A stretch of 64,000 nt of DNA. Source: a virus. The DNA lies in IMG/VR virus record IMGVR_UViG_3300035698_014689, positions 30,887 to 94,886 of that record. One strand, given 5' to 3'. Positions 18,742 to 36,497 of the stretch are shown one piece after another. Position 1 is the first letter of the stretch. Each line of letters begins with the position of its first letter. The notes below the pieces were generated by a model that was not told where the DNA came from, ran no database searches, and saw nothing but the letters and a program-made list of their open reading frames with translations. The position numbers and the translations under genes are program-made.

Positions 18742-21528
18742 CTATCCTTCAGCCATCTTCTCGGCGATTTTATTCAATTTATCCCCAGCCAATTTCATCT
18801 CCGCTTCTGTTGGCATCGCTTGAATCTCATCAACGAATAAAGGAATACCGCCAGTGAGAATAAAAGGCTTGTCCCCACCTTTAACTGGAGGCCCTAATTG
18901 AGCTATGTCACGGATGTCATTTATACTGATCACACCCTTCTCCATGAACGCCAGCAGGTTCTCCCGCTGATTCGCTTTATCTGTGACATCCAAAGATTCG
19001 AAAACGATCTTAACTGAAGTCGTTCCAAGTCCGTAATGGAAAAGCCTAGAAAGCATCTTCTCCCATCTACGTTGAAGAGGATCGACAATACGGTTCTTAT
19101 AGTTGCTGGACTGTGCATCACCTTTACCAGAGCCAAGACTGGCTGAATCGGTCATCCCGACAATCGCGGCAGACATACCATGAGCAACCAAAATTGCTTC
19201 TTGATTATTCTTGCGTGTATCCTGAAAAGAACCCTCCTGCGTATCATCGGTCAACTTCTTAAATTCAACCTTGACATCCCCTCCAGCGGCTGGGATAGGA
19301 ATGACGAGTGTTTTATGCGCCTGCCCTTTTATATCCTGAGCGAAGTAACGCTGGATGACTTCCTTGACTTCGTTGGAAAGTTTCGCCCCAGTGATAATGA
19401 CTGCATACTGCGGAACTGCGTTATGATCGAAAAACTGCAAGAAAAAATCACGTATGTTGATATTCCCCATAATACTACCTATCGCAGGAATCACGTCGGG
19501 GACGCCATAATACATCGACTTCGGATGTGGCTTTGTCAGCATCATTACTTCCGTCGCTGAATCTTGAAGTCTCGATACATCACTATTCAAATCATCCTTA
19601 CCTTTCATGTTCCATTTTCCAGCACTGAATTTGCCGTCCTTAGCGGGGTCGAAAGGCAGAGGATTATTATTTATGTCGGTTCTGTTCGGACTCAAAAGTT
19701 TTCTTCCAAAAGGCAGGTAGTAACGATAAGTGCCACTCTTGCCCGAATTTGCTCCCCCCAGTTCCGCGAAACCCGTCCAACCTTTAAGGACGCGCATCCG
19801 AGCCACAGGAATATGATAGAGCCTTCGGATTTTCTTGTCCAGTGCTCGAACAACCTCTATAAAGCAATAACCCACAGACTCATAGTCAGTGGCGGCTTTT
19901 TCGAGCACACCCTCGAAGCGGTCGTTCTCATTGCAGTTCTCAATGAAATCCTCGACCTCAACACTCTGAGACGAGGATTCTGTGTCCTTCTCATCCTTAT
20001 TCTTTTTAGCGATGACATATTCACGACCAACGGCATCCATAACTTTCGTCTTCACGCAATTGTGAGTGACCAAGCCATTCGCTACAAAAGTGTGTGAACC
20101 CTCGACCTCAAGATTGTAAACAGAGCCAGAAAAAGATTTCTGTTCAGAACTGATGACTTTTCTCAAAAGAACCTCACCAATACCTAATAGTGAAGTAAAA
20201 CAATTTCTTTTCCGAGAATTAGTACATGACCCCACAGAATTGGAAAGGAAATCCTTAGCATCCTGACCTCTCAAATCAAGTCTATACACTCTTCTTTTTG
20301 AAATGGGCTGTTGCTCATAGACAGAAACATCATATCTCAAATAAGATAAAAGTGTGAATAACTGTTTAGATAATTCTTTGGAGGTAGTAACGAAAATACA
20401 ATCACCATTCTTATTGATATGGCCATCACCATCAAAATAAGAACGCAGAAGAATTAAAATCTGTCTCAACTCCAAACGAGCTAAGAAGTCTTTCTGAATT
20501 CTTTTTCCATAGCAAAACTTTCCACCCAAAAAGGTCATTAACTTATGAACATACGGTTTCGAACAAACAATCTTGCCTGTATTTTTCTCCTCATCAAAGT
20601 AAACCTTCGAAGTGGAGTCGAAACAATTACTTAATCCATTCATCACTCTTTGATGATAATCCTTCTCATCTTTGTGAAAAGTGAATACAGTCGAATAATT
20701 ACATTGATATAAATTACGTTTATTTATGAACTCATAATCAGAGCAACTTCCTTCCGCCAAATAAAACCCCAGTAATTCACAGAGCTCATCCGAGGCGACA
20801 ATCTTCTGTCCCTGAAAAACGAGTGCTGTTTCATCAACCATTTTCCATAAAGGCAGGGAACCAACGATAAAATCCCCCACAGCAATCTCGGATGCGTTTT
20901 TCCAAGAAAGTAATTCATTCGCCTTATCACTTAAAAGTACACCCTCTCCCGATAAGCCACTGACTCTTTTTTCTCTTGTTATCTTCGCTCTAAAATCAGC
21001 AAATGAACTGTCAACTACTAAATAAGGATGCTCTGATGTAGAACTTATTGTTCTCAATCCATGAACATCTAAAAGAACAAGCTCCTCCTCCACATCAAAT
21101 TTCATTACATCTGTTACTTCATAAAAATCATTGTTATGTGAAAGAACTCTTTCCCCCTTCTTAATAGAAGCAATAGAACGACTCTCTAAATCTTTCGTTA
21201 AAACAGTGACATCATCGGTAAAGCAACGATAATGAACCTCGTCAACATCCAAAAACTTCGCCATCGTCTCAGGATCAAAGGGAGGGTAAACAATATCTTG
21301 TGACGTGACCTCGTCATCCTCGTCCTTGGTGTCGGGCTGATTAGAACCTTCCATCTCCTTCTCGATCAACGTCTTGGCTTGCTGACCCTTCTTCATCAAA
21401 TCCTGTGCCGATATGACCTCTCCATCCGACATAATAAAAGCAGAGTCCACAATCGGCTCATCACTTACAGAACTTTTCGTCATTACCTTATCTCTTTTCC
21501 GACCTACGCGTCTGTGTAACTTTCTCAT
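18742..21528 (-). CDS. Portal protein (PBSX/XkdE-like) with an intein
   Basis: PPFDP, YYGVPD, FFDHNAVP and GVISINDIR motifs; downstream of TerL. Confidence 0.92.
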   Translation of the reverse strand: MRKLHRRVGRKRDKVMTKSSVSDEPIVDSAFIMSDGEVISAQDLMKKGQQAKTLIEKEMEGSNQPDTKDEDDEVTSQDIVYPPFDPETMAKFLDVDEVHYRCFTDDVTVLTKDLESRSIASIKKGERVLSHNNDFYEVTDVMKFDVEEELVLLDVHGLRTISSTSEHPYLVVDSSFADFRAKITREKRVSGLSGEGVLLSDKANELLSWKNASEIAVGDFIVGSLPLWKMVDETALVFQGQKIVASDELCELLGFYLAEGSCSDYEFINKRNLYQCNYSTVFTFHKDEKDYHQRVMNGLSNCFDSTSKVYFDEEKNTGKIVCSKPYVHKLMTFLGGKFCYGKRIQKDFLARLELRQILILLRSYFDGDGHINKNGDCIFVTTSKELSKQLFTLLSYLRYDVSVYEQQPISKRRVYRLDLRGQDAKDFLSNSVGSCTNSRKRNCFTSLLGIGEVLLRKVISSEQKSFSGSVYNLEVEGSHTFVANGLVTHNCVKTKVMDAVGREYVIAKKNKDEKDTESSSQSVEVEDFIENCNENDRFEGVLEKAATDYESVGYCFIEVVRALDKKIRRLYHIPVARMRVLKGWTGFAELGGANSGKSGTYRYYLPFGRKLLSPNRTDINNNPLPFDPAKDGKFSAGKWNMKGKDDLNSDVSRLQDSATEVMMLTKPHPKSMYYGVPDVIPAIGSIMGNINIRDFFLQFFDHNAVPQYAVIITGAKLSNEVKEVIQRYFAQDIKGQAHKTLVIPIPAAGGDVKVEFKKLTDDTQEGSFQDTRKNNQEAILVAHGMSAAIVGMTDSASLGSGKGDAQSSNYKNRIVDPLQRRWEKMLSRLFHYGLGTTSVKIVFESLDVTDKANQRENLLAFMEKGVISINDIRDIAQLGPPVKGGDKPFILTGGIPLFVDEIQAMPTEAEMKLAGDKLNKIAEKMAEG
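20059..21225 (-). mobile_element. Intein (389 aa) in portal carrying a LAGLIDADG endonuclease
   Basis: CFTDD...STSEHPY...LLGFYLAEG...SYFDGDG...ANGLVTHN followed by C. Confidence 0.92.
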
Positions 21529-21541
21529 AACTGACTCCCAT

Positions 21542-23224
21542 TTATCCTACTGAAATATCCGCTAAAGTGTCGATAGAATTTACCATCATTTGAGATGCAA
21601 TCAGATCATAATTGTCGGCATGACGTTGATGATCTTTCCGCTCCTTGCTCCAAATATACCGCACGTTACCACTTTTATCAACCTCTGATTGTCTTTTAGC
21701 AACCAACATCTCTTCAGTGTAATCCCCTCCCATGATAGCAGAGTAGTTCTCAGGCAGTACAACCTTCTGTTTTTTCATGGCAGAAAAAGAGCGGTCAAGA
21801 GAGGACGTTCGATCCACGGTAACAACACGAGCTTTCTTATCTTTCTTCAGTCTTGCGTCTTTACCCTCGCTTCCATATCGACACAACCACACAAAACAAG
21901 TAAACTCCTCCTGAATCTCCTGAACCAATTTTGCTTCGGGCATACTGTCGATAACCATGCACCCCACATTGTACATATTTGAGAGCTCAAACAGCTCGGA
22001 CTTATCTGTGACCTCACCAATGAAAGCGGCTATACGTGTTCCGTCATCCAAAACCCTTGATATTTTAACATCGAAATTCTTACCTACATCAACACCCATT
22101 GAACACGGCCCGATACTGCGGTTTCCTTCGACGTGAGCGCAACGACCATCCATCACGAATCGATACCCGTCCTCCTTTAAAGAATCAAGCAGTAAGGCCG
22201 AAAGGCACATCCCCGCTGGGCTGTAAGGAATACCTAAATCGGAATTGTGAAAATGCTGGTAAGCGGCATCATCCCCAAAAGAGTCCTCAAAGCGTTCAAA
22301 CATCTCCGAGATGGAGTTGAGACGAGAGTTCATCATCGTCATAAGCCAACCCTCAATTTTACTATCGGGATTCTGCTCCAACCACTCACCTCCCCCATAT
22401 CTGCTAAATGGATTGCCACAGTGACGACATACTGGACGAATCTCTTTCCCTGCTCTCCATGAATCATCCATAAGATCATAACCAGTTGGGAGACCTTCAA
22501 TATCGTATTTTATATCGACAATAGTACTGAACCAGTCCAACGAAACAAGTTCGTGGCAGGTGTCGCAAGCGACATGCCATTCCTGACGTGTTGACCGCAG
22601 GTAGTGCTTATTGATCCCGTAGCCTTCTGTAGAGGGGTTTCCTATCCATCTTTTAAACTGAAAACGTGATCCCCTGAGTCTGTCCTCACCGTACTCAAGA
22701 TTCAACTGGTCACACTGGTCAACCTCCTCCACGTAAATAGCATCTGCAGGGAACTCTTTAAAATCTGAAATAACATTAGAACCCACATACTTGATTGTTC
22801 CTTTCCCGAACGATTTCATAACCACGTTATCAACTGAGATCACCTCTGTCTTACGCTTCTGATATTCCTTGACCATTTGAAAACATTTATCAATACGATT
22901 CTGCACATAAGCACCACGGGACTCAAACTTAGGTAGAACGAAAAAAACTGACATGCCCGTAGCGGCGCACGCAAAATGGTCGATAACTACGAACTCGGAT
23001 TTCATGGATTGAACAGAGCCTTGAAGAACCATCTGCGGAGCCGTCGATTCATACAGGGGGAGCAAGTGAGGATTATCTTTAAAATTCATGCGCTGACCAT
23101 GCGTATTCAAGTGGTGATTTTTCGCAAAGTCAATACGCAACTCCTTCATCTTTAAAAGACGATCAACACGCTCAAGTGCCAACTCATCATCCATCTCATC
23201 GATAAAAGAGAATTCTTTAGACAT
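21542..23224 (-). CDS. terL: Terminase large subunit (lambda gpA-like)
   Basis: GSVQSMKSE Walker A-like, IYVEEVD Walker B, GNPS, CxxC pairs, MGVDVG nuclease motif and DH..HADNY. Confidence 0.9.
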   Translation of the reverse strand: MSKEFSFIDEMDDELALERVDRLLKMKELRIDFAKNHHLNTHGQRMNFKDNPHLLPLYESTAPQMVLQGSVQSMKSEFVVIDHFACAATGMSVFFVLPKFESRGAYVQNRIDKCFQMVKEYQKRKTEVISVDNVVMKSFGKGTIKYVGSNVISDFKEFPADAIYVEEVDQCDQLNLEYGEDRLRGSRFQFKRWIGNPSTEGYGINKHYLRSTRQEWHVACDTCHELVSLDWFSTIVDIKYDIEGLPTGYDLMDDSWRAGKEIRPVCRHCGNPFSRYGGGEWLEQNPDSKIEGWLMTMMNSRLNSISEMFERFEDSFGDDAAYQHFHNSDLGIPYSPAGMCLSALLLDSLKEDGYRFVMDGRCAHVEGNRSIGPCSMGVDVGKNFDVKISRVLDDGTRIAAFIGEVTDKSELFELSNMYNVGCMVIDSMPEAKLVQEIQEEFTCFVWLCRYGSEGKDARLKKDKKARVVTVDRTSSLDRSFSAMKKQKVVLPENYSAIMGGDYTEEMLVAKRQSEVDKSGNVRYIWSKERKDHQRHADNYDLIASQMMVNSIDTLADISVG

Positions 23225-23225
23225 A

Positions 23226-23798
23226 TTACATCCTTCTTCCGTGTTTCAGGAGGCGTTTAATCGAGGCCCTGATTTCGTCGGGTGTTCGCTGTTCATCAAG
23301 TAACTGTTGCTCGGTATCCTGATTCTGCTCAAGTGAGTCAAACAATTTCTCGGGAACATTCTTAGGTATTATACCAGTGTCCATCATAAGTTTGATCTTC
23401 ATATCACGAGCTTTCAACGCGGCTGAATGAAATTTACTTTTATTCGGATCAACAACCTCAACCTCAGTGACTACCCCAGTAGAAGGATCAACAACTTTTT
23501 GTATCTTCTTATTTGACGTTGCAATCTCATGTAAAGCGACAGTTTCCATTTCATCAAGCCAGTGCAAGTGATCCGCGATTAACGTGACAGGATCGGTTTT
23601 AATGATCTCCTCACGATACCTACGACCCAGTTCCTTGATGTCACGATAAATAGTGGCTGTGGAAACGCCTAACGATTTCGCTATTGCAGGAACGGACGCA
23701 CCGCGCATTCTAAGACTGGAAATCGTGTCCATCCTTTTCTCGCGTTCATCCTCCAGCAACTCCGTCTGAAGTGCAGGCATATTATTCGTCTCTTCCAT
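23226..23798 (-). CDS. terS: Terminase small subunit (N-terminal HTH)
   Basis: GASVPAIAKSLGVSTATIYRDI helix-turn-helix; directly upstream of TerL. Confidence 0.75.
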   Translation of the reverse strand: MEETNNMPALQTELLEDEREKRMDTISSLRMRGASVPAIAKSLGVSTATIYRDIKELGRRYREEIIKTDPVTLIADHLHWLDEMETVALHEIATSNKKIQKVVDPSTGVVTEVEVVDPNKSKFHSAALKARDMKIKLMMDTGIIPKNVPEKLFDSLEQNQDTEQQLLDEQRTPDEIRASIKRLLKHGRRM

Positions 23799-24558
23799 TT
23801 TTCAGCACCTCTAACAAGTAGTCATTTATGTTCAGATCATTCTCTTTGATTACTTTGACCATCCCCTCTACCTCAAGCTTCAGCTCCTCCTGCATCATAA
23901 CAAGCAGATGCGTTCTTCCCTTATAAGCGAAAAAGAGAAAATCACTTGGGACGGTCTCACCGTAATCCGCAAAGATATTATTCAGAACATCAGAAACCGC
24001 ATCAACGGCCTCGACCTCCTTCTTGCTATCCTTCATCAAAGTATCCATCCAGCTCTTATCTTTCTCCTCTTTATCCTGCAAGAGGTGCTTAGTGAATTCC
24101 TCCTCCGTATCAAAACCCATCAAAGAGGGCATATCCTCTATGTCAACGGAATCACTTAACGAATTAACGAGCTCGGTGAACTTACGGTCGTTCAAATCAC
24201 CTGTGAGCAGGTTTTTTCGGACTGTTTTCAGCTTCTGCTTTTCAACGTCATCCCACGGCTTGACAATAACAGGAATCTCCAACCAACCGAGAACACCAAG
24301 AACCTTCCATCTGTGCTCGCCTCCGATGATCATATAATGAGGGCCTTTTATTTCCGAACAGTTGCAGTTGACAACCTCAATCGCTCCGTCGAAGCCCTCC
24401 TCCTCGATCTCCTTGACGAGCTCGTTGAACTTTATGGCAGTCTGCTCATTCGGATTCCAAGGGTTCGGGTGAAGCTTGTCAACCGATACCATGATACTCT
24501 CATTGATTTTTCCGACTGCTGGGACAACGTCCGCCTTCTTCTTTTTTTCCTTATCCAT
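23782..24558 (-). CDS. ParB/Srx-like N-terminal domain protein
   Basis: LHPNPWNPN, IEEEGF and IIGGEHRW motifs. Confidence 0.88.
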   Translation of the reverse strand: MDKEKKKKADVVPAVGKINESIMVSVDKLHPNPWNPNEQTAIKFNELVKEIEEEGFDGAIEVVNCNCSEIKGPHYMIIGGEHRWKVLGVLGWLEIPVIVKPWDDVEKQKLKTVRKNLLTGDLNDRKFTELVNSLSDSVDIEDMPSLMGFDTEEEFTKHLLQDKEEKDKSWMDTLMKDSKKEVEAVDAVSDVLNNIFADYGETVPSDFLFFAYKGRTHLLVMMQEELKLEVEGMVKVIKENDLNINDYLLEVLKNGRDE

Positions 24559-24588
24559 CGCCTATCTCCTTTTTCTTACATGTATATA

Positions 24589-24807
24589 CTATAGCCTGCT
24601 TTTGATCATTTGCATCTGATTCTTTACAAAAATGTCCGCACTCTCACACATCTCCGACACTAACTGGGGAAAAGAGCATTCAGGCTCCCACCCCAACTCC
24701 TCCCGAACACCACTGCTATCACCGCATAAAACATCAATCTCAGCCTCACGAAAAAACTTGGCATTGATTGAAACAACGGAGCCATCTAAATCGAAGAAAG
24801 CCAGCCA
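24589..24807 (-). pseudogene. gmd: C-terminal remnant of GDP-mannose 4,6-dehydratase
   Basis: INAKFFREAEIDVLCGDSSGVREELGWEPECSFPQLVSEM matches the Gmd C-terminus; the Rossmann fold and catalytic core are absent. Confidence 0.75.
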
Positions 24808-25051
24808 ATAAATGAATCTGATGAACATCCGCACTGCCAAAATTCTTCCACAGAAGAAGTGCCTCTCCTTCGACACAAAGAAAATACTCTTTGAATTCAG
24901 GGTGAGAATGAAATCCTCTTTTCTTCCCTTTCGTAATATGAACAAGACTGAACTCTAAAACAGGCTCGTCGGGGAGCCATGTGAAAATACCTCCTCTGCC
25001 ATCAATAACGGTATTCTTATTACACGTAGAATAAATTATTTTAGTAGACAA
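24799..25051 (-). pseudogene. Truncated cupin (FdtA/QdtA-like sugar 3,4-ketoisomerase or epimerase)
   Basis: DGRG and RGFHSH..FKEYFLCVEG motifs; the second cupin motif is missing; TTG start after an AGGAGG RBS. Confidence 0.65.
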
Positions 25052-25052
25052 G

Positions 25053-26210
25053 TCACGCCCTCCTACATTCTGAAGCAAGTTCGAAGCAAGCACACCTGAC
25101 ATCATCTTCAGTCAATGATGGACTGCTTGGCAAGCAGACTATGTTTCTCCACAGAAAATCAGCCTCCCCAGTACACAAAACATGTCTCGCCTCTGTTGGA
25201 GCGAGTGTTTCAATCGGATAAAATCCGGGCCTACACTCTATTCCCTTCTCTATTAAAGCGAGTCCAATACTCTCAGCGGAACGTCCACCATCCTTCAAAA
25301 CAAAGCAGTTCAACCAAGCAACAGCATAAACGGAGTCATCACTTAAATAATCAGAGGGGGACTGGAAGTAACCAAACTCGGTTAACCCAATACTCTCAGC
25401 CTCTCTACGATAAAGCTCAGCAATACACCTACGTCTATGCAAATGCTTTTGAACATCCTCAACGGCGGCAAGAGCCACAGCTGACACTAAATTTGACAGC
25501 AACCAGTTGTTTCCCTCGACATTCGTGAAATACTTGTCCCACAGTCCCTTCGCCACACGTCCCCTGTCAGCGATAATATCAGCTTGTTTAATCAGCTCCT
25601 CATCAAAAGAGACAATCACCCCAGCTTCACAGCTTCCAACCAATTTTTCCGCCCTGCAAGAAAACGTGGCAACACCCCCTATACGTGCAATTGAGTGCAT
25701 CTCTCCCGATTTCCTTATTTTCGCCCCGTGAGCCTCCGAACAGTCATTCACTAAAAAGATGCTATTCCGATCACATAAGGAATCTATTGCAAGCGTGTCC
25801 TTTGCTGGCGTGCCATACAGGTGAACAAGGATCACAGCCGATATATCATATTCGAGGATTGCACGTTTCAAAAGACGCACATCCATACCAAACGTATCCC
25901 TCTCCACATCCACAACTACTGGTACGAGACCTGCACCCTTAACAGCCTGCCCTATTGCAGAGCACGTATAACTGGGAATAACCACCAACGATCCCTTTGG
26001 CAAGCCCCGAGTCATAAGAGCAATCTGCAAGGCGGCAGTCCCAGTATTCACGGCCTTGGCGAAGGGAACATCCACAAACTCAGCAAACGCCTTTTCAAAT
26101 CTCTTAGAGAAATCTCCTCGACAAGCTAACCAAGTGGTATCAAAAACCTCCGATACGTACGCACGCATTTTCAGCGTGACGGAGGGCTCATTCAGACGTA
26201 ACTTTTTCAT
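25053..26210 (-). CDS. DegT/DnrJ/EryC1/StrS PLP-dependent sugar aminotransferase (perosamine-synthase-like)
   Basis: NTGTAALQIAL, VHLYG, NDCSEAHGA, FS...K (PLP lysine), GIECRP and CLPSS motifs. Confidence 0.92.
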   Translation of the reverse strand: MKKLRLNEPSVTLKMRAYVSEVFDTTWLACRGDFSKRFEKAFAEFVDVPFAKAVNTGTAALQIALMTRGLPKGSLVVIPSYTCSAIGQAVKGAGLVPVVVDVERDTFGMDVRLLKRAILEYDISAVILVHLYGTPAKDTLAIDSLCDRNSIFLVNDCSEAHGAKIRKSGEMHSIARIGGVATFSCRAEKLVGSCEAGVIVSFDEELIKQADIIADRGRVAKGLWDKYFTNVEGNNWLLSNLVSAVALAAVEDVQKHLHRRRCIAELYRREAESIGLTEFGYFQSPSDYLSDDSVYAVAWLNCFVLKDGGRSAESIGLALIEKGIECRPGFYPIETLAPTEARHVLCTGEADFLWRNIVCLPSSPSLTEDDVRCACFELASECRRA

Positions 26211-27679
26211 CCTTCACTCCTTTTGCATCCAGCGCCTCTAAATCAAAAACGGGATACTCTTTTAAACATGTGTCTTTTGCGAATGCACAAAACTGCCTAT
26301 AGCAATTATTCCAAGACTCTTTCTTCATAGAGCCCGCTCCCATTTGATCAACATTCTTATACATCTCTTTCATCTCCCGCACAACCTCCTGAAGCTCAGG
26401 CCATTCGTTTGCACCTCTTTTTTCGCCTCTTTCAGTATTTTAGTGCACAGGTGAGTCACAAAGGGTTTCGACCTAAAATGACTCATATCCGCTTCGTAAT
26501 CCTCGTAAATCTTGTCGAACAGTGTTTTAATGCTGGCATCCAACGAATTATTCTCTTTTACCCACTGACCAAAGCCCTGAACCTTTTTGACTGCATCATC
26601 GTAGTTCATAATAGCGAAACGAAGCATCGCCCTCGCCTCATCCTCCGTGTCATAAAAGAATGGATATTCTGGAGGGAGCAACCCAGCATTATTCTTCCGA
26701 TTAACTATAACGATGAGACCAGCATAAATCTGCTCAAAAACGGCGCTAGGAAGCATACGCAGGGTCTGAGGAAAAATACTTATGTGAGACTGCACCATCA
26801 CATCCCACGCTTCCTCCTGAGACAGGTCTGTGAAAAACTCGACCTCCTTCGCCTTTTCCTTCACAGAGGCAACCTTCCCACTTTTTGAGGGAGTCGTAAC
26901 TTTGATCTCAACATCCTTGCCAGTTTTATATGCCAAGTCGTAACACTCCGTAGCGAAATCACCTCCCTTCGTAGCGGTGAAACGACCACCAAAATAAAGA
27001 GTCGTTTTTTCAAAGCGTTTTCCTTTCGTTCTTTTCACGGCCTCATCGATGCTTTGAGTATTCAGAGCACCATTGAGAATTATTATCTTTTCCTGCATGG
27101 CTTTGACTCTGTCTGGTGCAACAAAGAATTTTGCTGAGTCCACAGCCTGCTTCTTTGAATATGCAGTCGCCAAAACAGGGTAGTCTATAAGCGAGTACGA
27201 TAGGGAGTGCCATGCCATATTCGCATAATTCGCATTCGAGCATTCCGAGTCGTACATACTCTTCGTATTATAATCCCACAGAGCAACTCTAGGTGTGTGC
27301 CCCCACTGAGCTTGCCGAGCAACTCACACATCTTGCCAGCCTTCCCAGCGTTATTACTCAGAACCAAATCAAATGTCCCGTACTTGCCAACCCACGGATC
27401 AATCTGCTGAAAAAGCTCCTCCGAGAACATCCATTCATTTATATCTCTGTTGGAATAAAGCGGCACGAAGATTTTCTTTAAACGAGGCGCATCCCACTCG
27501 TCCTCAAATTTCCAATAGTGCAGAGGGGAAACTCCCTCAACTTGCGGAAGTACCCAGTAAAAAAAGATGTCGTCTCGATACCGTGAAATTGACTGAATCA
27601 AAGACCTCGTTAAAGTGAAGCTGGAGTCAGCGTTCAGATTAGGCGGATACTCATAAGTGTTCAAAATAAGAATTCTCAT
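26188..27679 (-). CDS. GT-B fold glycosyltransferase, broken by two 1-nt homopolymer frameshifts
   Basis: Three ORFs join into one protein of about 497 aa if C5 at 27300-27304 becomes C6 and T6 at 26418-26423 becomes T7. YFGGRF...K and FEQIYAG motifs; resembles the upstream GT. Confidence 0.75.
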
Positions 27680-27680
27680 A

Positions 27681-29141
27681 TTACTCCTTGATAAAGATAC
27701 TCTCGTCCTTACGTACCAGACAACCAGTGGCAAATAATGCTCTCTCAATTGAAATTCTATTCGATTTCAGGAATGCAGACATGAACTCCTCTTTCAGAGC
27801 CTTCTTACACGCCATGTCATAAAAAACAGGGAGAGTTACCTCCTTACCCGCATTCTCTTTCATAACCTCGCCAAAGACAACGTCAAGACGGGCCACAGCA
27901 CCCGACGCTCTGAATCTGTCTCCCTGTCGCACATAACACTCCTCTAAAACATCAGACCAAAAGTGACCTATGTTCTCTAACGAGAAACGCTCACGATACC
28001 CCTCCAACCACGTCTTAACCTGATCCTTAACTTTCTTCGGATTACGTGCACATAAATGCACTAACAAATCAAAGTCCTTATCAGATTGAGCGATCAACGG
28101 GTAATCAGGAAAACGACCCTTATTCCAAGGCTTCTCACGAATAACAGGAACCGCCCCAGAAAAAATAGCTTCAAACAGTGCGATGCCCGTTCCTTCGTAT
28201 TCAGTCCACATAAGATAGAAATCTATGTTCTTTAAATTCTCAATATAATCCGCTCTCTTCACATTTGTCAGGAAAGTCAGACGTTCCCCTAAGTTCTCCC
28301 TCATGCCACAAATAACGTCATGCGTTTCAGTGTCCAAATCTTGCTGAGTCATGCAATAAAAACCCACGTTCTTTTTCCCTACACAAGCGGACTTCACGGA
28401 CTTTGCTAAATCAGACCAGTGACGCTTCGACTCCATCGAACCAGCATGACCGAAAGTAGCTCTCTCCTCGGGTCTCTTATGGACTGGAACCTCATCCGAG
28501 GGCATACTAGGAATAAATGAACGTGCGTTCAACTGTTGCTGTTTAACTGGTGACAGATATTGCTTTGCCAGTTTCGTGAGCCAGCCTTGATCCGCTTCAG
28601 TAAAATTCAAAGTCAGGTCAGAGGCTAACGCACTCGTTATGGATTGTAACTCCCCTTCAGGTGAGCCAAGTTTCGGAAGGTTCTTATCCGCTCCAGACTC
28701 GCTCAGAAAATTCAAAATACTTGGCGAGATATGAGGAAATACGTATTTATTCCCCCCGAAATCGTGGGGCATCATCTGAGCGGCTAACTGCTGATTTGCA
28801 GTGTAATACCACGACACGAATAAATCCACCCTGCGGGAGTCCTTACTCGCAAGCCACTGTAACATCTCGGGATGAAATAACGGAGGTGCAACACCATTAA
28901 ATCCGTCCTGTCCTTTACGAGCCTCAGCACCGTGACAGGTGAAGGGAAGAAACTCTATATCCAGTCCATCGAAGAAGCCATCCACCTGAATCTCACTCTC
29001 CTCGTCGGGATGGAAAAATATCCAGTGGACATCAGACCTGACTTTATTGACGGACTGAATTATCGAGCGTGAAAAAACGCATTGACTTATTCCGTCCATT
29101 CGCTTCGCAGTATATCCCCACCATAAAAAACATACATTCAT
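27681..29141 (-). CDS. GT-B (GT4-like) glycosyltransferase
   Basis: FGHAGS...KRH and YEGTGIALFEAIFSGAVPV (EX7E); start moved to the ATG with a GAGGTG RBS. Confidence 0.85.
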   Translation of the reverse strand: MNVCFLWWGYTAKRMDGISQCVFSRSIIQSVNKVRSDVHWIFFHPDEESEIQVDGFFDGLDIEFLPFTCHGAEARKGQDGFNGVAPPLFHPEMLQWLASKDSRRVDLFVSWYYTANQQLAAQMMPHDFGGNKYVFPHISPSILNFLSESGADKNLPKLGSPEGELQSITSALASDLTLNFTEADQGWLTKLAKQYLSPVKQQQLNARSFIPSMPSDEVPVHKRPEERATFGHAGSMESKRHWSDLAKSVKSACVGKKNVGFYCMTQQDLDTETHDVICGMRENLGERLTFLTNVKRADYIENLKNIDFYLMWTEYEGTGIALFEAIFSGAVPVIREKPWNKGRFPDYPLIAQSDKDFDLLVHLCARNPKKVKDQVKTWLEGYRERFSLENIGHFWSDVLEECYVRQGDRFRASGAVARLDVVFGEVMKENAGKEVTLPVFYDMACKKALKEEFMSAFLKSNRISIERALFATGCLVRKDESIFIKE

Positions 29142-29151
29142 TTGAATCACC

Positions 29152-30114
29152 TCAGATAGATTGAATTTCCTTGATGACTTTACCAAGGCGCTTGTCAATA
29201 AACCACTCGACTAAAGAGCAGAAATCATCAGCAAAGGATAAGGTCTCGGCCTTCTTTTCGTCATACAGAAGAGGGCCACACTTTTCAACTACTTCAGGAT
29301 TGCATATATCGCTCAAAATCATAGGATATACGTTTGTCAAGTGTGAACAGATAACCATCCACCAACTATGACCGAATTCCTCCGCTGACTTGAAACCTGC
29401 TGACATCAATTTATCAGCCCTGTTTCTCCAGAAAATTTTCAGGATTTCTTTTCCCGCGAAAGTATGCTGATCGAGTGCTGTTATCATCATCCCGTCCTTC
29501 TTCTTATCACACACCTCAAATTGAATGGCATCCACTGGAGCCAGACATCCCTGACGTTCCGAGCACTCCAAGATGTAGGGAAGGAAAAGGGACTGCTTCT
29601 CATAATCCCACTTATTAAAACAACGTTCGCAAAAATCAACTAAATCAGCATCATACCCCAGCTCCCTATAAATACTGAAACTTCCCTCAAGCAAACCACG
29701 CTTCATAAGGTATTGCAACTCCTCGGGAAATTTCTTGGATAAAGCCGTTTCATTATTTGCATTATAAGCGAGGGAAGAGAGCTCACGGGACTTTGGAGCG
29801 CCACAGAGTGAAACGATCCACTGCTCTAATTCAGACCAGTTTTCTGAGTTGGGGTTCTTCTCCCATATTGGAGCGAATGTGGAGCAGACTCCAGCGCACT
29901 CCTCGAACATAATTGTCAACAGTCTGCGCCAAAGTGTGAAAGGATCATACAACCACACCATACGACCATATCGAACAGCGTCCTCAACGTTACCACGTCT
30001 AATCGCTTTTTGAACGGCGCTTTTGCAGGTATAAAGGGCGGACTTACTGGGTTTCTCAACATCCTTCCATTCAGGGAAGAGATAGGGCTGTACTTTTGTT
30101 TCTATCTTACTCAT
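29152..30114 (-). CDS. Protein with a MgsA/RarA C-terminal-like helical domain (no ATPase domain)
   Basis: KSAVQKAIRRG...LWRRL..I..EE and ALDQHT..G motifs. Confidence 0.65.
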   Translation of the reverse strand: MSKIETKVQPYLFPEWKDVEKPSKSALYTCKSAVQKAIRRGNVEDAVRYGRMVWLYDPFTLWRRLLTIMFEECAGVCSTFAPIWEKNPNSENWSELEQWIVSLCGAPKSRELSSLAYNANNETALSKKFPEELQYLMKRGLLEGSFSIYRELGYDADLVDFCERCFNKWDYEKQSLFLPYILECSERQGCLAPVDAIQFEVCDKKKDGMMITALDQHTFAGKEILKIFWRNRADKLMSAGFKSAEEFGHSWWMVICSHLTNVYPMILSDICNPEVVEKCGPLLYDEKKAETLSFADDFCSLVEWFIDKRLGKVIKEIQSI

Positions 30115-30149
30115 TTCATTCCTTACTTTATATGACGATCACACCAAAT

Positions 30150-30178
30150 AGGATAAACTCTGTACACTGAAATACAAG
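30150..30178 (-). promoter_or_regulatory. Putative promoter of the glycosylation-packaging operon
   Basis: CTTGTA-17 nt-TATCCT. Confidence 0.55.
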
Positions 30179-30937
30179 TCAGTCATCCGTTTTTGTTCTT
30201 GATATTGCGATGCTCTCTATTTTGCGTAATAGAAAGAACTGCTTGTCCGTGAGATAGCCTCTTTGCTCGAAGAAGTTAAGAAAATCAACAATGATTTTTC
30301 GTTCCTTCGTGTCCAACGCTTTACTCATAGAGTTAACAGCATCCAGCTTCTCCTTCACATCACTGCCAGCTTTTCGTAATGTGACAGGATCAATCAGCTC
30401 ATCACCCTCACGTTTCATCATAAGATATTTTCCGCACTTGTTATTAAATGCGGCGACTTGTTTGGTGGTTGGAGTCTGCCCCTCTTTAGCAATCTTTCTG
30501 TGGAGGTCGGACAAGAATGAATCCTCACTGCCGTTATCCAAAGTATATGAGCCATCGTTGAACTCACAGAGGTTCTTGAAAAACTCAGGTTCGGCCATTG
30601 ACAAGTCCTCAAGGAAAAACGCCAAGTCCTCCTCGGTGTCACCGTCTAATTTCGGTCTTCTTAATTTCTCATCCATCTCCTGACGAGCCTCCTCGGAGGA
30701 TAAGAACATAACATCCTTCAAAATCTGCTTGTATTGATCATCGGAAACAGTTTTCTCTAAACACTCCAAACAGAGCGTGACTGGAATCGCATCGTGGTCT
30801 GATTCATCTGAAACAAAATAGCAGGCGGCTGACAAGACAACTAGATCAAAACATGCCTCACATTTCAGTGACTTCTGTTTCACATTCATTTCAAGGACTT
30901 CGAGGCCCGTCAGAGCCTCAATCAATTCATTGCTCAT
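30179..30937 (-). CDS. Hypothetical protein with an N-terminal Zn-ribbon
   Basis: CEAC...CLEC motifs; strong RBS. Confidence 0.6.
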   Translation of the reverse strand: MSNELIEALTGLEVLEMNVKQKSLKCEACFDLVVLSAACYFVSDESDHDAIPVTLCLECLEKTVSDDQYKQILKDVMFLSSEEARQEMDEKLRRPKLDGDTEEDLAFFLEDLSMAEPEFFKNLCEFNDGSYTLDNGSEDSFLSDLHRKIAKEGQTPTTKQVAAFNNKCGKYLMMKREGDELIDPVTLRKAGSDVKEKLDAVNSMSKALDTKERKIIVDFLNFFEQRGYLTDKQFFLLRKIESIAISRTKTDD

Positions 30938-30954
30938 TTTCCAATTTCCTCCAA

Positions 30955-31335
30955 TTAAATAAAGTTTCTCCTGACTAACTGATCAGTCATCCAGATGATC
31001 TTCACTGGCTTATTCAACATAAAAACATGATCAATCATACCATCACGGGTAAGACGAATCTGCGTATAAAAACCATCAGTAGGAGCTTTTATCTCCGTGT
31101 GTAGAGCACCTATGGAATGATCCTCATCACGAAAGAATAAAAAACCCAGTCCGTGCAATCGAGTGCACTCGATCTTAGCCCTTTCCGCAAACTTCGGCCA
31201 CATCGCAATCTGTGACTCTGTTTTCGGAACGACTTTTTTTGGATAGGGATCAGCCAAAACTGCGAAATTCTCATCAACGGGTTTCGACGAATAAATCTGC
31301 ACACACTGACCATCTTTGTTCTTATATATTTTCAT
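30955..31335 (-). CDS. Hypothetical protein
   Basis: 126 aa with RBS. Confidence 0.55.
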   Translation of the reverse strand: MKIYKNKDGQCVQIYSSKPVDENFAVLADPYPKKVVPKTESQIAMWPKFAERAKIECTRLHGLGFLFFRDEDHSIGALHTEIKAPTDGFYTQIRLTRDGMIDHVFMLNKPVKIIWMTDQLVRRNFI

Positions 31336-31338
31336 TTT

Positions 31339-31794
31339 CTACTCCTCATACAAAACCTCACAAACCAAGCCCCTATTCGAAGAACTCGGACGTAAAACAC
31401 GAATATCTTTGACGAAACGTTCGCCATCAATCACCGTGACCTTTTCAAACGTTCTCAAAGTCAAAAGACAGATCAAACCAAAAGGGCGACTGTGCAGATA
31501 CCAGCCAGTTGCTCTATCATCTATTTTAGCATAACAGAACAGAGACTGGAATGGAGCACCATCACGTGTCTTCCAATCCTCGTAAACTTTAACGAGCTTC
31601 CCACCCTCGGAAAACAGTCTATCACCTTCAACTGGAAGGCGCTTACTCAGCTCCTCAAAAGAGACACCTGACTTTTTCAAACTCTCTCTGTCATTCGAAG
31701 AGGATATTCGATCAGTCTGTGACTCCACGAGCTTCGATTTCAACTCCTTTTCCGAAGTGATGCCAAGCTCCTCCATTACCTCTTCTTTTTTCAT
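31339..31794 (-). CDS. Hypothetical protein
   Basis: 151 aa; ATGA overlap with the upstream gene. Confidence 0.55.
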   Translation of the reverse strand: MKKEEVMEELGITSEKELKSKLVESQTDRISSSNDRESLKKSGVSFEELSKRLPVEGDRLFSEGGKLVKVYEDWKTRDGAPFQSLFCYAKIDDRATGWYLHSRPFGLICLLTLRTFEKVTVIDGERFVKDIRVLRPSSSNRGLVCEVLYEE

Positions 31795-32171
31795 CTTACC
31801 TCCAAATTCACAAATTTCAGATTCGGATCAAACCTAATGAACAAATCCTTAATATCCATGAGCAACAAATCCCTCCCCTTCAAGTCCCTGCCGTCATTCA
31901 CACTAGCGATCAGGAAAGTGATGCAGACATTATCTTCCTTGATGTCGGAGATAACTCCCAAGGGAGCCTGAGCCATATTCTCAATCCTCCAGCGGATTTT
32001 ATTTCCATTCGTCACTGTGAGCGGGAGAGGTAATTTGCATCTGCCGAAAAGATGTACCACGGATGGTATGTGCCTCGTATCAACAATGAAGACGTGAGTG
32101 TGAATTTCCCTCAACGCTGTGAACTCCTTCATCGATTTTATCTTGTCATCAATTGGTTTGAAATCATTCAT
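31791..32171 (-). CDS. Hypothetical protein
   Basis: 126 aa, coupled to its neighbours. Confidence 0.55.
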   Translation of the reverse strand: MNDFKPIDDKIKSMKEFTALREIHTHVFIVDTRHIPSVVHLFGRCKLPLPLTVTNGNKIRWRIENMAQAPLGVISDIKEDNVCITFLIASVNDGRDLKGRDLLLMDIKDLFIRFDPNLKFVNLEVR

Positions 32172-32391
32172 GGATACTTACCTTTATGTTGCGTTCCTCA
32201 TACTTTCTGAACTCCCACTGATAGCGTTTAAATAGTTCACACCCGCACCAAATAATAGTAACCCCATCTTTCGGCTTGGAAACAAAAGAGGAGTCGGGTT
32301 TTAACCCCTTCCTCTGACGTATCTGAATTTCGACATCTTTAATATCGAAATCCACGTCTTGCAACCAAAATGATGGAATCTCTTTTTTCAT
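32164..32391 (-). CDS. Hypothetical protein
   Basis: 75 aa, coupled to its neighbours. Confidence 0.5.
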   Translation of the reverse strand: MKKEIPSFWLQDVDFDIKDVEIQIRQRKGLKPDSSFVSKPKDGVTIIWCGCELFKRYQWEFRKYEERNIKVSIHE

Positions 32392-32771
32392 TTGATGTAC
32401 ACCACGAAATCTTTCCGTACACCAACGATCAGCATATCAGTGACAACCTTGGACTCGATTGTAACGGCTTCAACCCCTTCGGGGGGATCAGGAATCACAT
32501 CCTGCTCTAAAATCGCTGTCAGCTCTTTCATAACCTCAGATGCTACATCTTTAGAAGCACCAGTGCCCACGAAAGTTCCTGCAATCATTTTTTGATGCCT
32601 GCAATCATTACCTCTTGAAGAGTCGAACGGACAAGAGCAGTAGAGGTCGGAGCAGATGTACTTACGAGTTACTTTCTCGGCTTCCATCCTTGTCACGTCG
32701 CCTTTTTCAAAGATGTAGATTTCATCGAAGATTTCATACAGTTTTGAAATGTCAACCACTAACTTGCCCAT
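32388..32771 (-). CDS. SWIM zinc-finger protein
   Basis: CSCP......DCRH motif; start moved to the ATG with an AAGGAG RBS. Confidence 0.7.
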   Translation of the reverse strand: MGKLVVDISKLYEIFDEIYIFEKGDVTRMEAEKVTRKYICSDLYCSCPFDSSRGNDCRHQKMIAGTFVGTGASKDVASEVMKELTAILEQDVIPDPPEGVEAVTIESKVVTDMLIVGVRKDFVVYIK

Positions 32772-32805
32772 CTCGTTCTCCTTTGTTTGATTTGCCGTTA
32801 ATTGA

Positions 32806-33834
32806 TTACTTCTTCTCTTCAGCGAAGGCGGGGATGGTCTCAGCATCCGTTTTTTCGATCTTCAGCGTGATGCCAAAGGCCCGTTCGATGTTTTTAATAT
32901 GAAGGTCAGCCCTGTCAAGAAGCGCGTCCACAGGCTCTGCACCCTCTTTAACCAACGCCCCAGCAATGAAGTCAGTGGCAACGAGGTCTAACAAGTGGCA
33001 TGGCTTCTCACTCCCTGAAATCTTGGAAGCAAGTGCAAGAGCTGTTTCGATGTTCTTGTGTTGATCTTCGGTCAAGCTGAAAGTCATACGCTTGGTGAAA
33101 TCTGTGACAGGTGCTTTTCCCTGAGCGGCTTTTACCATCGCATTGATTTCTACAACAGTCTTGTCCTCAATCTTTTTGAGCCATGCTTCCCAGTTGTCGA
33201 TAGTCAGGACAGGCAGAAGCTCCTTGGCTTTCGACCATTCCAAATCCTTCAACACTTCAATCGGAAGTCCGAGCTCAACAACGAATTTTTCGTAAATCTG
33301 AATCAGATAATACGCCTTCCGTCTTTTGAACTCAAGCTCTTTTTCAATGTAATCGTTGAAGCAATCAAAGCCCCAGTCACGCCAGTAATTTCTTTTGGCG
33401 ATTTCATAGAGAAGCTCACCCTGAACCAATCCTAGTCGGTCGGTCATTACTTTTGATGTTATTGCGGCTTCCCTGACAGCTTGAGAGCGTTCGACCAAGC
33501 TCAGACCTTTATTCGGAATACCTGTGAGAGTCAAGGCATCGTTGTCCCACAGCTTACGAGCGACCACCGGAATCATAATATCGTCGAGGGCCTCCTCAGT
33601 TTTCGGAGGGGGAGTGTCAGCAGGGGGATTCTCTTTGGGAATCTCAGTGTCAACAGGATCAACGATTTCAGGCTCTATGGCCTTGGTTTCTTTTTTCGGA
33701 GCTGATTTTTTTGGAGCAACCTTTTTCACAACCTCTTTTTTCGCAGGTGCTTTTTTGGGAGCATCTTTTTTGACTGTCTCTTTTTTTGCGGTGGACTTCT
33801 TTGGAGTCACTTTCTTTTCTGTCTTGGTAGTCAT
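32806..33834 (-). CDS. DNA-binding protein: histone-H1-like Lys-rich tail plus DUF3102-like HTH
   Basis: KKxxxKK repeats; GELLYEI...W..WGF..F.DY...EL.....AY.LI motif. Confidence 0.65.
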   Translation of the reverse strand: MTTKTEKKVTPKKSTAKKETVKKDAPKKAPAKKEVVKKVAPKKSAPKKETKAIEPEIVDPVDTEIPKENPPADTPPPKTEEALDDIMIPVVARKLWDNDALTLTGIPNKGLSLVERSQAVREAAITSKVMTDRLGLVQGELLYEIAKRNYWRDWGFDCFNDYIEKELEFKRRKAYYLIQIYEKFVVELGLPIEVLKDLEWSKAKELLPVLTIDNWEAWLKKIEDKTVVEINAMVKAAQGKAPVTDFTKRMTFSLTEDQHKNIETALALASKISGSEKPCHLLDLVATDFIAGALVKEGAEPVDALLDRADLHIKNIERAFGITLKIEKTDAETIPAFAEEKK

Positions 33835-33884
33835 TCTGATTTCCTTCTCTTTGCTTTTAAATTACATACTTCCTAAAACGATAA

Positions 33885-33913
33885 ACCATACTACATAATC
33901 ACATTTTTTCAAG
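33885..33913 (-). promoter_or_regulatory. Putative promoter
   Basis: CTTGAA-17 nt-TATGGT. Confidence 0.55.
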
Positions 33914-34178
33914 GCTCTTTTTATCTTTCCTCCTATTTATTCGAGAAACTGTTTCCATCTAAAATTTCACATGCAGTTAATCGAGACCATATTCCTGAGC
34001 TTCAGATCAGAAAAAGAAATGAGCTTTTTGACTTCAGCCTTTTTCACTTCCTTCGAAGCCTCGGGATTCATCATGCAGAAATTACCAAACAACAAATTCA
34101 ACATTTCCTTCCTATTCATTTTCTATTTCCTCCAATTTAAAAAACATTTGAAAAGGAACCATTCCCCTTCACATCAAT

Positions 34179-34222
34179 AAAATAGACTTAATGGGGCGTA
34201 AGTCAAGTGCAATTGAGTGCAA
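34179..34222 (-). promoter_or_regulatory. Putative promoter abutted by a copy of the 16-bp motif
   Basis: CTTGAC-17 nt-TATTTT; the motif at 34207-34222 touches the -35 element. Confidence 0.6.
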
Positions 34223-34237
34223 TTATTCTTTTATTTT

Positions 34238-34780
34238 TCAAATCAAACTTAATTTGAGTGTGTGCTTCGTGTCAAAATTTGCGTATTTAGAACGAATTCT
34301 TCCTTTTTTACCGCAAAGACAGACTTGCGGAACGAAGGATTTCGAAAACAATTGATCAGGAACAACTTTATTTATATACAGTGAATAACGGTAATACATC
34401 ACCTTCTGAATATAAGCGAAGGAACGATCCCCGCCAAAGCGATTAAACGTCCCCTTGACATCCACAAAGATAAACTCATCAAAACGCAGGCCGTGGAATA
34501 GGCGGGAGAGTTTTTCTGTCGGGCAGAGAACAAAGTCAACCGTATAACGCCACGGCTGGAGAAGTGTTTTCTCAACTATTTTCACCTTGGTTTTCAACTG
34601 CTTCTCTTCAGTGAAAGTGGCACGGGGCGTAAGCTCAAACGGCTCAGGGTGATACTCAAACCACGCTAGTAGTTCAAGCTCCTGAGCCTCCTTACACCAG
34701 TGATAAAATTCAAGCTCCAAGTCGGAATCGAATTCAATATCATCAGCTATTACTTTGGGCTTCGACTGCTTCCCACTCAT
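34238..34780 (-). CDS. PD-(D/E)xK endonuclease (DUF1064/T7 endonuclease I-like)
   Basis: FDS.LE..FY, YTVDF and VDVKG motifs. Confidence 0.75.
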   Translation of the reverse strand: MSGKQSKPKVIADDIEFDSDLELEFYHWCKEAQELELLAWFEYHPEPFELTPRATFTEEKQLKTKVKIVEKTLLQPWRYTVDFVLCPTEKLSRLFHGLRFDEFIFVDVKGTFNRFGGDRSFAYIQKVMYYRYSLYINKVVPDQLFSKSFVPQVCLCGKKGRIRSKYANFDTKHTLKLSLI

Positions 34781-35333
34781 ATTTATATACCTCCACGTAA
34801 GTCGATGGCACTCCGTTCTCCAACACACCACTGATCTTATCTTTTTTGATCTCGTCCAGCTGAGTGAAATAATTCGAACAGCCCGCTCTACGAATATAGA
34901 GGCTGTTATCTAGGCAACCCTCAATCCAATTAACAAAACCCGCTCCATCTACTGGGAAAGATGCCATAACCTCCATTCTCGTATCGTGCAATTGTGCGTG
35001 CAATTGTTTGCACATCTCAACATTACCTATTCCCACTTCAACAGGATCTAATATATCCTGAAAACGTAACGCCACACGCTTCAAAACCAGATAACCAATT
35101 ATATCAAATTCAGTGTCTTCATTGCCGTAATCTCCCCCCTTTAAGATACGATTGAACTTATCATCCAGTCGCACATTGATCTGCTCCAACGCATCTGATT
35201 TAGCGAACATCCGCAACGGCTGAAGGGCGGAATTGCCATAACTCTTATTCTTCTCCAACAACATCTCTTTCACCCCGTCACATTCCTCAGCTATCAACGT
35301 CTGGGCGAGCTTCTGTTCATCTGGCTTATCCAT
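34743..35333 (-). CDS. DUF1599 / nucleotide-modification-associated domain 1 protein
   Basis: LLEKNKSYGNS...VRLDDKFNRI...EDT..DIIGY motif. Confidence 0.75.
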   Translation of the reverse strand: MDKPDEQKLAQTLIAEECDGVKEMLLEKNKSYGNSALQPLRMFAKSDALEQINVRLDDKFNRILKGGDYGNEDTEFDIIGYLVLKRVALRFQDILDPVEVGIGNVEMCKQLHAQLHDTRMEVMASFPVDGAGFVNWIEGCLDNSLYIRRAGCSNYFTQLDEIKKDKISGVLENGVPSTYVEVYKYEWEAVEAQSNS

Positions 35334-35611
35334 TTTTTGGACTCCTTATATTTGATTTCTCCATCCTCAATATACTCAAGAAAACAACGACTGTTTCTCC
35401 AACCAACTATCACTATTGAATCTTCAAAAACACCCGAATGCAATCCATTAGTACCCTCGATGAAAATCCTACTGTGGCAATTAGGACAAAGTTGTACACG
35501 ATTAAAACGTCTATTTGAGCCTCCGAATTCCACAGGAATAATGTGATGATTATGAATACTCTTCCTTACATCAGTCTCGTGAGAACACAGATAACAGTTA
35601 TACCTTTTCAT
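35294..35611 (-). CDS. HNH endonuclease
   Basis: CYLC...HHIIP...GG.N...N...LCPNCH. Confidence 0.85.
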   Translation of the reverse strand: MKRYNCYLCSHETDVRKSIHNHHIIPVEFGGSNRRFNRVQLCPNCHSRIFIEGTNGLHSGVFEDSIVIVGWRNSRCFLEYIEDGEIKYKESKKWISQMNRSSPRR

Positions 35612-36317: not shown

Positions 36318-36365
36318 CTGATTCACCTCTTTACATATAATACACTTGAAAACACTGGAAACAAA

Positions 36366-36497
36366 CGGACAGCAGAATAATCTGTTCCATGACTTATCAG
36401 AACCTCCCAGCTCAACTGGAATGATGTGATGATTTGCGACATACGATCTATGATCCGTCTCATAATCACAGTCTGGTATTTCACACTTAAATCTCAT
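36366..36497 (-). pseudogene. Orphan 5' half of an HNH gene, in frame with the GIY-YIG gene
   Basis: ...NHHIIPVELGGSDKSWNRLFCCP aligns with the first ~43 aa of the HNH at 35294-35611 and stops before NCH. Confidence 0.7.

Follow-up and report, generated by a model that had tools for sequence, protein, structure and literature searches.

Why does a phage keep glycosyltransferases and sugar-nucleotide enzymes beside the genes that package its DNA, and what do these enzymes decorate? The question is raised by a gene cluster in the IMG/VR virus record IMGVR_UViG_3300035698_014689, a contig of 94,886 bp (class 'linear' in IMG/VR; CheckV completeness 79%), of which the right-hand 64 kb, positions 30,887 to 94,886, form the window analysed here and supply the numbering used below. 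We find that the cluster represents one copy of a glycosylation module that is conserved, though accessory, in a large clade of siphoviruses (~60-100 kb), and that this copy is partly eroded, with a frameshift in one glycosyltransferase (GT) gene and a deletion across the cupin and Gmd genes. The module appears to be built of a protein designated X, one or two phage-specific, retaining GT4-type GTs with a winged-helix end, and a variable set of nucleoside-diphosphate (NDP)-sugar tailoring enzymes, and it lies tight against ParB-TerS-TerL, where the packaging operon begins. What it glycosylates is probably borne by the phage itself, and possibly is the phage DNA.

Nearly all genes of the window lie on the minus strand, and from 30114 to 21542 eleven minus-strand reading frames abut or overlap one another. 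Every gene of the coupled operon named in the preliminary description of this locus exists there, with spacings of -73 to +64 bp, the exception being 187 bp of remnant DNA ahead of ParB. In their order along the minus strand, these genes, followed by the portal gene at the downstream end of the packaging block, are:

29152-30114, minus strand: X, 320 aa, helical, its N-terminal domain MgsA_C-like; opens the module
27681-29141, minus strand: GT-a, 486 aa, a phage-specific GT4-type enzyme (predicted GT-B fold, EX7E motif) with a C-terminal winged-helix-like domain; apparently intact
26370-27679, minus strand: GT-b, a second GT4-family paralogue, split by a frameshift into open reading frames (ORFs) 27185-27748 and 26370-27257
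26188-26382, minus strand: a 64-aa ORF that overlaps both the end of GT-b and the beginning of the aminotransferase gene; without a Pfam or PHROGs family
25053-26210, minus strand: DegT/DnrJ/EryC1-family sugar aminotransferase dependent on pyridoxal phosphate (PLP), intact; PF01041, 206.9 bits (cut-off 19.8)
24746-25105, minus strand: truncated cupin, FdtA/WxcM-like, with an RG-H-x-H motif; weak PF05523 and PF14667 matches
24640-24780, minus strand: remnant of a Gmd-type NDP-sugar 4,6-dehydratase, its last ~45 residues; PF16363 positions 289-332 of 332
23782-24558, minus strand: ParB/Srx-domain protein, an N-terminal ParB domain followed by a clade-specific C-terminal domain; PF02195, 32.9 bits (cut-off 26.3)
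23226-23798, minus strand: helix-turn-helix (HTH) protein in the position of the small terminase (TerS); N-terminal HTH matches
21542-23224, minus strand: large terminase (TerL); GpA_ATPase, E 6e-15, 56 bits (cut-off 25.6)
18742-21528, minus strand: portal protein with a LAGLIDADG intein; Phage_portal E 1e-22, Intein_splicing, LAGLIDADG_3

The largest intergenic gap, 64 bp, is at 30150-30178, where a promoter had been proposed; no sigma-70-like site scores there, and across the region such sites occur at chance level.

The case for a module comes from its recurrence. A ParB-based scan of IMG/VR gave 205 relatives, of which 80 loci were kept and their module genes scored with purpose-built hidden Markov models (HMMs); loci are denoted by L numbers throughout. 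In 26 of the 80, a gene of the GT family is found no more than 6 kb from ParB. The median gap in these 26 is ~200 bp, 14 of them have a gap within 250 bp, and in several, stop and start codons overlap between ParB and the module. X is present in 18 of the 26 module loci, and it stands ahead of GT-a in L001, L003, L004, L005 and L007. A further 29 loci, each with 6 kb or more of sequence flanking ParB on either side, are without the module. ParB is a core gene of the clade just upstream of TerS-TerL, and the glycosylation module is accessory. It usually sits between ParB and a Lys-rich core protein (32806-33834 in the window), though other arrangements occur, namely ParB-X-GT (L049, L052), X-ParB-GT (L063) and ParB-GT-ParB (L066). 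As ParB may thus come after, before or inside the module, the association argues for more than a fixed insertion site.

The sugar genes that accompany X and the GTs vary. Among loci recovered from IMG/VR and metagenomes by GT-based searches, the order is X-GT-GT-ParB in L001, X ... cupin-GT-SDR-aminotransferase-GT-ParB-TerS-TerL in L005 and L008 (SDR, short-chain dehydrogenase/reductase), X-GT-aminotransferase-SDR-GT-ParB in L007, and ParB-X-GT-methyltransferase-GT-cupin-GFO oxidoreductase-aminotransferase-Gmd in L003, while in L004 X-GT-GT is followed by PIG-L, GT10, ATP-grasp and GT2 genes. Overall, the tailoring repertoire of the relatives spans SDR dehydratases, DegT aminotransferases, cupins, GFO/IDH/MocA oxidoreductases, class-I methyltransferases, radical S-adenosylmethionine (SAM) enzymes, nucleotidyltransferases, UDP-N-acetylglucosamine (UDP-GlcNAc) 2-epimerases, GDSL hydrolases and PIG-L deacetylases; modules without a cupin are common.

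The module is also found in cultured phages. A GT-based metagenome scan yielded three loci only; BFVD structure matches led to glycosyltransferases of Arthrobacter phages, and cultured carriers were established by tblastn, annotation and the purpose-built HMMs. In Arthrobacter phage Kitkat, X is gp80, the GTs are gp88 and gp93, and ParB is gp95, at the genome end that adjoins the terminase end. In Rhodobacter phage RcZahn, gp141, annotated as an 'AAA-ATPase', is a member of the X family and is followed by a deacetylase, an SDR, an aminotransferase, a methyltransferase and a GT, the module continuing across the permuted end to ParB (gp1) and the terminase (gp3). Stenotrophomonas phage DLP3 has X as gp78, module genes gp96-99, a GT as gp102, ParB as gp104 and TerL as gp106, and Vibrio phage V-YDF132 is a further carrier. 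RcZahn and DLP3 have single-GT modules. The hosts span Actinomycetota, Alpha- and Gammaproteobacteria, and hence Gram-positive and Gram-negative bacteria. The linkage to the terminase, on which the preliminary description had staked its reading, survives in these cultured phages as in distant relatives. Neither Megablast with 10 kb of the window nor tblastn with GT-a gave a match among cultured phages.

A pyruvate-phosphate-dikinase-like gene and protein tyrosine phosphatase (PTP)-type phosphatases follow the terminase in RcZahn (genes 6, 9 and 11), DLP3 (gp135, gp139 and gp141) and V-YDF132. In DLP3 this block lies many genes downstream of the terminase, and none was recognised in the scanned parts of the window. 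DLP3_141 (L097:35757-36533) is annotated as 'thymidylate synthase' in GenBank, yet has a C-x5-R-T phosphatase signature, on which ground we reject the annotation; the DLP3 paper, too, calls gp141 a tyrosine phosphatase (PMC7326821).

The preliminary description spoke of two ~490-aa GT-B proteins, which holds for GT-a, whose start is M20 of the listed ORF and not the TTG at 29198 according to 11 aligned homologues, and for GT-b insofar as it is a genuine paralogue, but GT-b is not a single reading frame. GT-b matches the glycosyltransferase family phrog_30253 (E 2e-24) and shows weak paralogy to GT-a. In the intact 501-aa GT-b of L003, residues 18-138 align to one reading frame of the gene and residues 243-416 to a different one, and the frameshift falls at a run of five C (plus strand) at 27300-27304; being in a 5-base homopolymer, it may be an assembly error. 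Both proteins score below the 26.4-bit gathering cut-off of Pfam Glycos_transf_1 (GT-a 19.6 bits, GT-b 17.4 bits), and 21 of 44 members of the GT-a family match that model at E<=0.01. The EX7E motif in the C-terminal domain of GT-a reads Y-E-G-T-G-x-A-x-x-E, with E343 invariant across the 44 members.

An AlphaFold2 model of GT-a from the 44-sequence alignment reached a mean predicted local distance difference test score (pLDDT) of 88, against 34 from the single sequence, and shows a GT-B fold over residues 18-425. Its closest structures are the retaining GT4 enzymes BshA, SenB, MshA, PimA, WaaG, TarM and PglA (Z 20-25), and on this modelled fold the GT-a group appears to be a divergent GT4 subfamily. 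Residues 428-505 are modelled as a helix-strand-helix-helix-strand-strand unit that superposes on the winged-helix-bearing RecQ, Mrr and WHD_BLACT models in Atlas, a short match that we treat as a lead. The family is small: clustering at 50% identity leaves 61 representatives in 1.8 billion proteins, most of them ~480 aa, and it was found only in phage contexts among the loci viewed, which cover a minority of the 61. A pattern scan of 185,579 cellular genomes gave one weak partial match only. The isoelectric points of the GTs and X were uninformative.

The MgsA_C likeness of X had been proposed from the sequence alone, and comparisons with the family point the same way. A profile of five X orthologues matches 3bge, the MgsA/RarA C-terminal domain, at E 6e-5 (RarA 3pvs is weaker, at 0.13), and comparison with Atlas structures returns weak RarA/MgsA_C matches (template modelling score ~0.33 by query). 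The single sequence has no Pfam match at E<=0.01, including MgsA_C (PF12002). A second invariant motif of X reads D-x-H-T-x-x-G-K.

The aminotransferase had been described as perosamine-synthase-like, and its best PDB match is indeed the perosamine synthase 3bn1 (E 3e-38), with its PLP lysine aligned to the FFGNK lysine of 3bn1. It falls, however, below every NCBIfam cut-off (the top model is LegC-like, at 177 bits against 420), and its nearest homologues are only 30-32% identical (at most 32% among 5.8 billion proteins). For these two reasons it can, as judged from sequence, neither be safely assigned as a perosamine synthase nor be taken for a recent capture from a host, a possibility that we reject.

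The cupin and Gmd genes are remnants, as had been recognised. What is left of the cupin corresponds to residues 40-116 of the L003 cupin (170 aa) and to residues 3-68 of the L005 cupin (151 aa); its homology ends at ~24836, and the rest of the ORF is an out-of-frame tail. We considered and rejected this cupin as a TET-like enzyme, since it has 150-170 aa in relatives, carries an RG-H-x-H motif of sugar-ketoisomerase type and occurs in only ~5 modules. The Gmd remnant covers positions 291-337 of 342 of TIGR01472 and matches residues 293-326 of the L003 Gmd. A single ~1 kb deletion that fused cupin and Gmd would be the simplest reading.

This erosion bears on the proposal that the phage makes its own NDP-amino-deoxysugar and that Gmd and Per together yield GDP-perosamine here. 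The likeness to the GDP-perosamine pathway is confined to the aminotransferase, whose best solved relative is a perosamine synthase, and the adjoining Gmd-type remnant. With Gmd reduced to a ~45-residue stub and the cupin truncated, the phage would be unable to make GDP-perosamine on its own, and a host NDP-4-keto-6-deoxyhexose would therefore be needed. The aminotransferase, moreover, is ~30% identical to perosamine synthases and below the equivalog cut-offs, and in relatives it is paired with UDP-GlcNAc-type PIG-L and Epimerase_2 proteins. Neither proposal stands for this genome. Taken as a whole, the observations of the preliminary description are partly confirmed and its first interpretation is partly supported.

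ParB matches phrog_26387 over its full length (E 2e-36); its ParB box reads GGEHRWKA, in which the canonical GERRxRA arginine patch is only partly present. The overlap of ParB with the TerS-like gene, reported earlier, amounts to 17 nt. Orthologues of this HTH gene lie between ParB and TerL in L005 and L011-L018. TerL has tblastn matches to annotated TerL proteins of Vibrio and Bacillus phages and is 47% identical to the L005 TerL; a TerL pattern scan of IMG/VR gave no match. Among the relatives, L066 has two ParB copies around a single GT, L065 a ParB of 715 aa, and L011 a TerL of 920 aa. The TerL here has 560 aa, and the extra length in L011 points to an insertion, for example an intein.

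How might these parts work together? The sugar, the timing and the acceptor are what we infer. Late in infection, the aminotransferase would turn a host-made NDP-keto-deoxyhexose into an NDP-amino-deoxyhexose; the GTs would move the amino-deoxyhexose onto a phage-borne acceptor; and ParB, with the winged helix of the GTs, would give access to DNA before or during packaging. That the acceptor is probably phage-borne follows from the range of hosts, which are both Gram-positive and Gram-negative, and is consistent with the near absence of the GT family from the cellular genomes scanned. Among phage-borne acceptors we favour the phage's own DNA, tentatively and at somewhat less than an even chance, because of the contiguity with ParB and the published restriction resistance of DLP3 and DLP5 DNA. 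The contiguity persists in several arrangements, GT-a has its winged-helix-like tail, and the domain of X is otherwise known from the replication/recombination protein RarA. DLP3 DNA resisted 15 of 15 restriction enzymes tested, the modification not being determined there (PMC7326821), and DLP5 DNA is also resistant (PMC8228603); in the DLP3 annotation we saw no recognised DNA-modification gene.

The sugar-hypermodification clusters of phage DNA (Pyle et al., 2023, bioRxiv 10.1101/2023.12.21.572611; O'Toole et al., 2026, PMC13229309) offer the nearest precedent. They combine phage GT-A/GT-B enzymes with epimerases and tailoring genes, often beside ParB-like proteins and terminases, as here; their GTs likewise resemble host lipopolysaccharide (LPS), teichoic-acid and small-molecule GTs. 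For such clusters, co-occurrence is reported with GTs (31%), with ParB (27%), with terminases (19%) and also with sugar epimerases, and one ParB activates a DNA dioxygenase on double-stranded DNA (PMC13229309; bioRxiv 10.1101/2023.12.21.572611). Unlike them, the present GT family has its own winged-helix tail and an MgsA_C-like partner. They are, moreover, defined by an enzyme that creates the acceptor, a 5mYOX (TET/JBP) or a ThyA-type hydroxymethylase; our searches detected neither in this record, nor any link between them and the module among its relatives.

This last difference heads the points that weigh against a DNA acceptor. The absence of TET/JBP and hydroxymethylase genes, noted before for the window, extends to the whole of our record, itself only 79% complete. 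PF12851 (TET/JBP) is absent from this record, from the four first relatives and from all 23 module-bearing records, one of them 100% complete, with the reservation that divergent 5mYOX proteins can escape that model (PMC13229309). PF00303 (ThyA) is likewise missing from our record and the four first relatives and present in only 3 of the 23 module-bearing records; ThyX does not track the module, occurring in 4 of 13 records that have the module and in 7 of 19 that lack it, and no C5-methyltransferase gene was found in the record or linked to the module in relatives. The fold of GT-a resembles GT4 enzymes that act on small molecules, lipids or teichoic acid. The structural comparison proposed earlier, T4 glucosyltransferases versus GT4s, places the GT4 enzymes closest among the matches listed: the T4 alpha- and beta-glucosyltransferases (GT63/GT72), which act on 5-hydroxymethylcytosine and share with the module a GT-B fold, a phage origin and the use of NDP-sugars, are not among the top 50 matches listed by Foldseek and VIA each, although a family that goes unlisted is not thereby excluded. 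T4 also needs a dCMP hydroxymethylase, absent here. Further, ParB is a core gene, present in the 29 well-flanked loci that are free of the module, and its adjacency could reflect a hot spot at the module boundary. The unrelated phage DLP4 is likewise restriction resistant, so that this resistance is not specific (PMC8228603), and the capsid-linked GT9/GT4 enzymes of our phage point to the virion.

Divergent ThyA-like proteins with PPCL and RSWD motifs (20-31 bits to PF00303) are encoded within ~3.5 kb of the module in two lineages (L040:1010-1954 and L051:11725-12609) and could be deoxynucleoside monophosphate (dNMP) hydroxymethylases. As makers of the module's acceptor they were rejected, being limited to the L040 and L050/L051 lineages and not found in this genome.

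The main rival to a DNA acceptor is the virion: the module would make an amino-sugar donor and add transferases for glycosylating capsid or tail proteins, alongside the multi-domain GTs of the head and tail operon. Phage GTs reportedly glycosylate the virions of mycobacteriophages such as Che8, Corndog and Myrna, decorating capsid and tail, and capsid-linked GTs are present here too: a 987-aa GT9-GT4-GT9 protein (9523-12486, minus strand) follows directly after the HK97-type capsid gene, and GT9 genes are present in the four nearest relatives that carry the module but in none of 19 records that lack it. The late-operon position fits, and the variable sugar genes resemble those of surface-glycan diversification. 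Yet GT9 is missing from 9 of the 13 sizeable records with the module, which can therefore occur where the capsid-linked enzymes do not, and the GT family is kept among phages of Arthrobacter, Vibrio, Rhodobacter and Stenotrophomonas whose capsid and tail proteins are very divergent. For the mycobacteriophage GTs, no tie to ParB or terminase and no X-like partner is described; the constant contiguity with ParB, the MgsA_C-like X and the winged-helix tail would all be left unexplained. On balance we place virion glycosylation on the unlikely side, while keeping it well in sight. A glycoside of the host or of a small molecule, be it a lipid carrier, an envelope polymer or a metabolite, made by the logic of BshA/BshB or MshA/MshB and serving, for example, superinfection exclusion or host takeover, seems distinctly more remote. 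It would suit the best structural matches of GT-a (BshA, SenB, MshA, PimA, WaaG and TarM) and the pairing of GT4 with PIG-L deacetylases, which recurs in the modules of L004, L033, DLP3, RcZahn and V-YDF132; the DLP3 authors, too, suggested LPS modification for gp102 (PMC7326821). Against this, the identity of GT-a to those enzymes is only ~10%, no ligase or cysteine step of the thiol-cofactor pathways is seen here, and the context is a phage packaging operon whose ParB linkage such a role does not explain. No search result suggests a membrane-linked step, and this one GT family, together with X, is shared by phages of Gram-positive Arthrobacter and phages of Gram-negative hosts, which have few envelope acceptors in common.

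Damage to three of the seven genes (GT-b frameshifted, cupin truncated, Gmd largely deleted) invites the thought that in this phage the module is a decaying relic without current function. We consider this improbable, and slightly more so than a host-directed role, given that X, GT-a, the aminotransferase with its PLP lysine and ParB are intact and tightly packed, that the homopolymer at the GT-b break leaves room for an assembly error, and that modules with one GT (RcZahn, DLP3) or no cupin exist among the relatives. If glycosylation of the phage's DNA is retained as the favoured reading, a bolder form of it is that the X-GT4-winged-helix-ParB module acts on DNA without any TET/JBP dioxygenase or ThyA-type hydroxymethylase, either through novel acceptor chemistry or through a hitherto unrecognised enzyme, perhaps X, that makes the acceptor; this we would call a long shot. 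If true, DNA bearing amino-deoxy-sugars would be a trait of a widespread clade, with DLP3, DLP5, RcZahn, Kelleziovirus and the SHOU24-like Vibrio phages among its members, and would account for the unexplained restriction resistance of clade members.

Other genes of the window deserve brief mention. The ten ORFs upstream of X (30179-37398) have no useful family match. In that stretch, 32806-33834 (minus strand) encodes the Lys-rich core protein of 342 aa. Its N-terminus is histone-like and rich in Lys, Ala and Pro, a conserved Y-W..W-G domain belongs to no Pfam family, and the gene stands just upstream of ParB or the module in ~32 related loci; this composition, its place among the core genes and the lack of an HxD motif led us to reject it as a hidden dioxygenase. 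The only plus-strand gene pair of the window (60029-61299), a class-I SAM methyltransferase and a 209-aa ORF, has near-zero GC skew and resembles an inserted island. A small radical-SAM protein of 184 aa (57933-58487, minus strand) is unrelated in position to the 425-462-aa radical-SAM genes in the modules of L011 and L038. The MuF and portal genes contain inteins (16035-18740 and 18742-21528, minus strand). As to nucleotide modification, the MazG gene reported elsewhere in the window is there, and the DUF1599 gene reported with it was not found at E<=1.

By glycosylating their DNA or their particles, phages alter how they evade restriction, escape defence systems and are recognised by immune systems. 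The present module occurs in about a third of a large siphovirus clade, with cultured carriers that include candidate therapeutic Stenotrophomonas phages, and its target has never been assigned. Since the enzymes that define every known route of DNA glycosylation were not found with it, a DNA target, if true, would reveal new chemistry; a virion target, if true, would extend the glycosylation of phage particles far beyond the mycobacteriophages. The existence of cultured carriers makes the choice between these directly testable.

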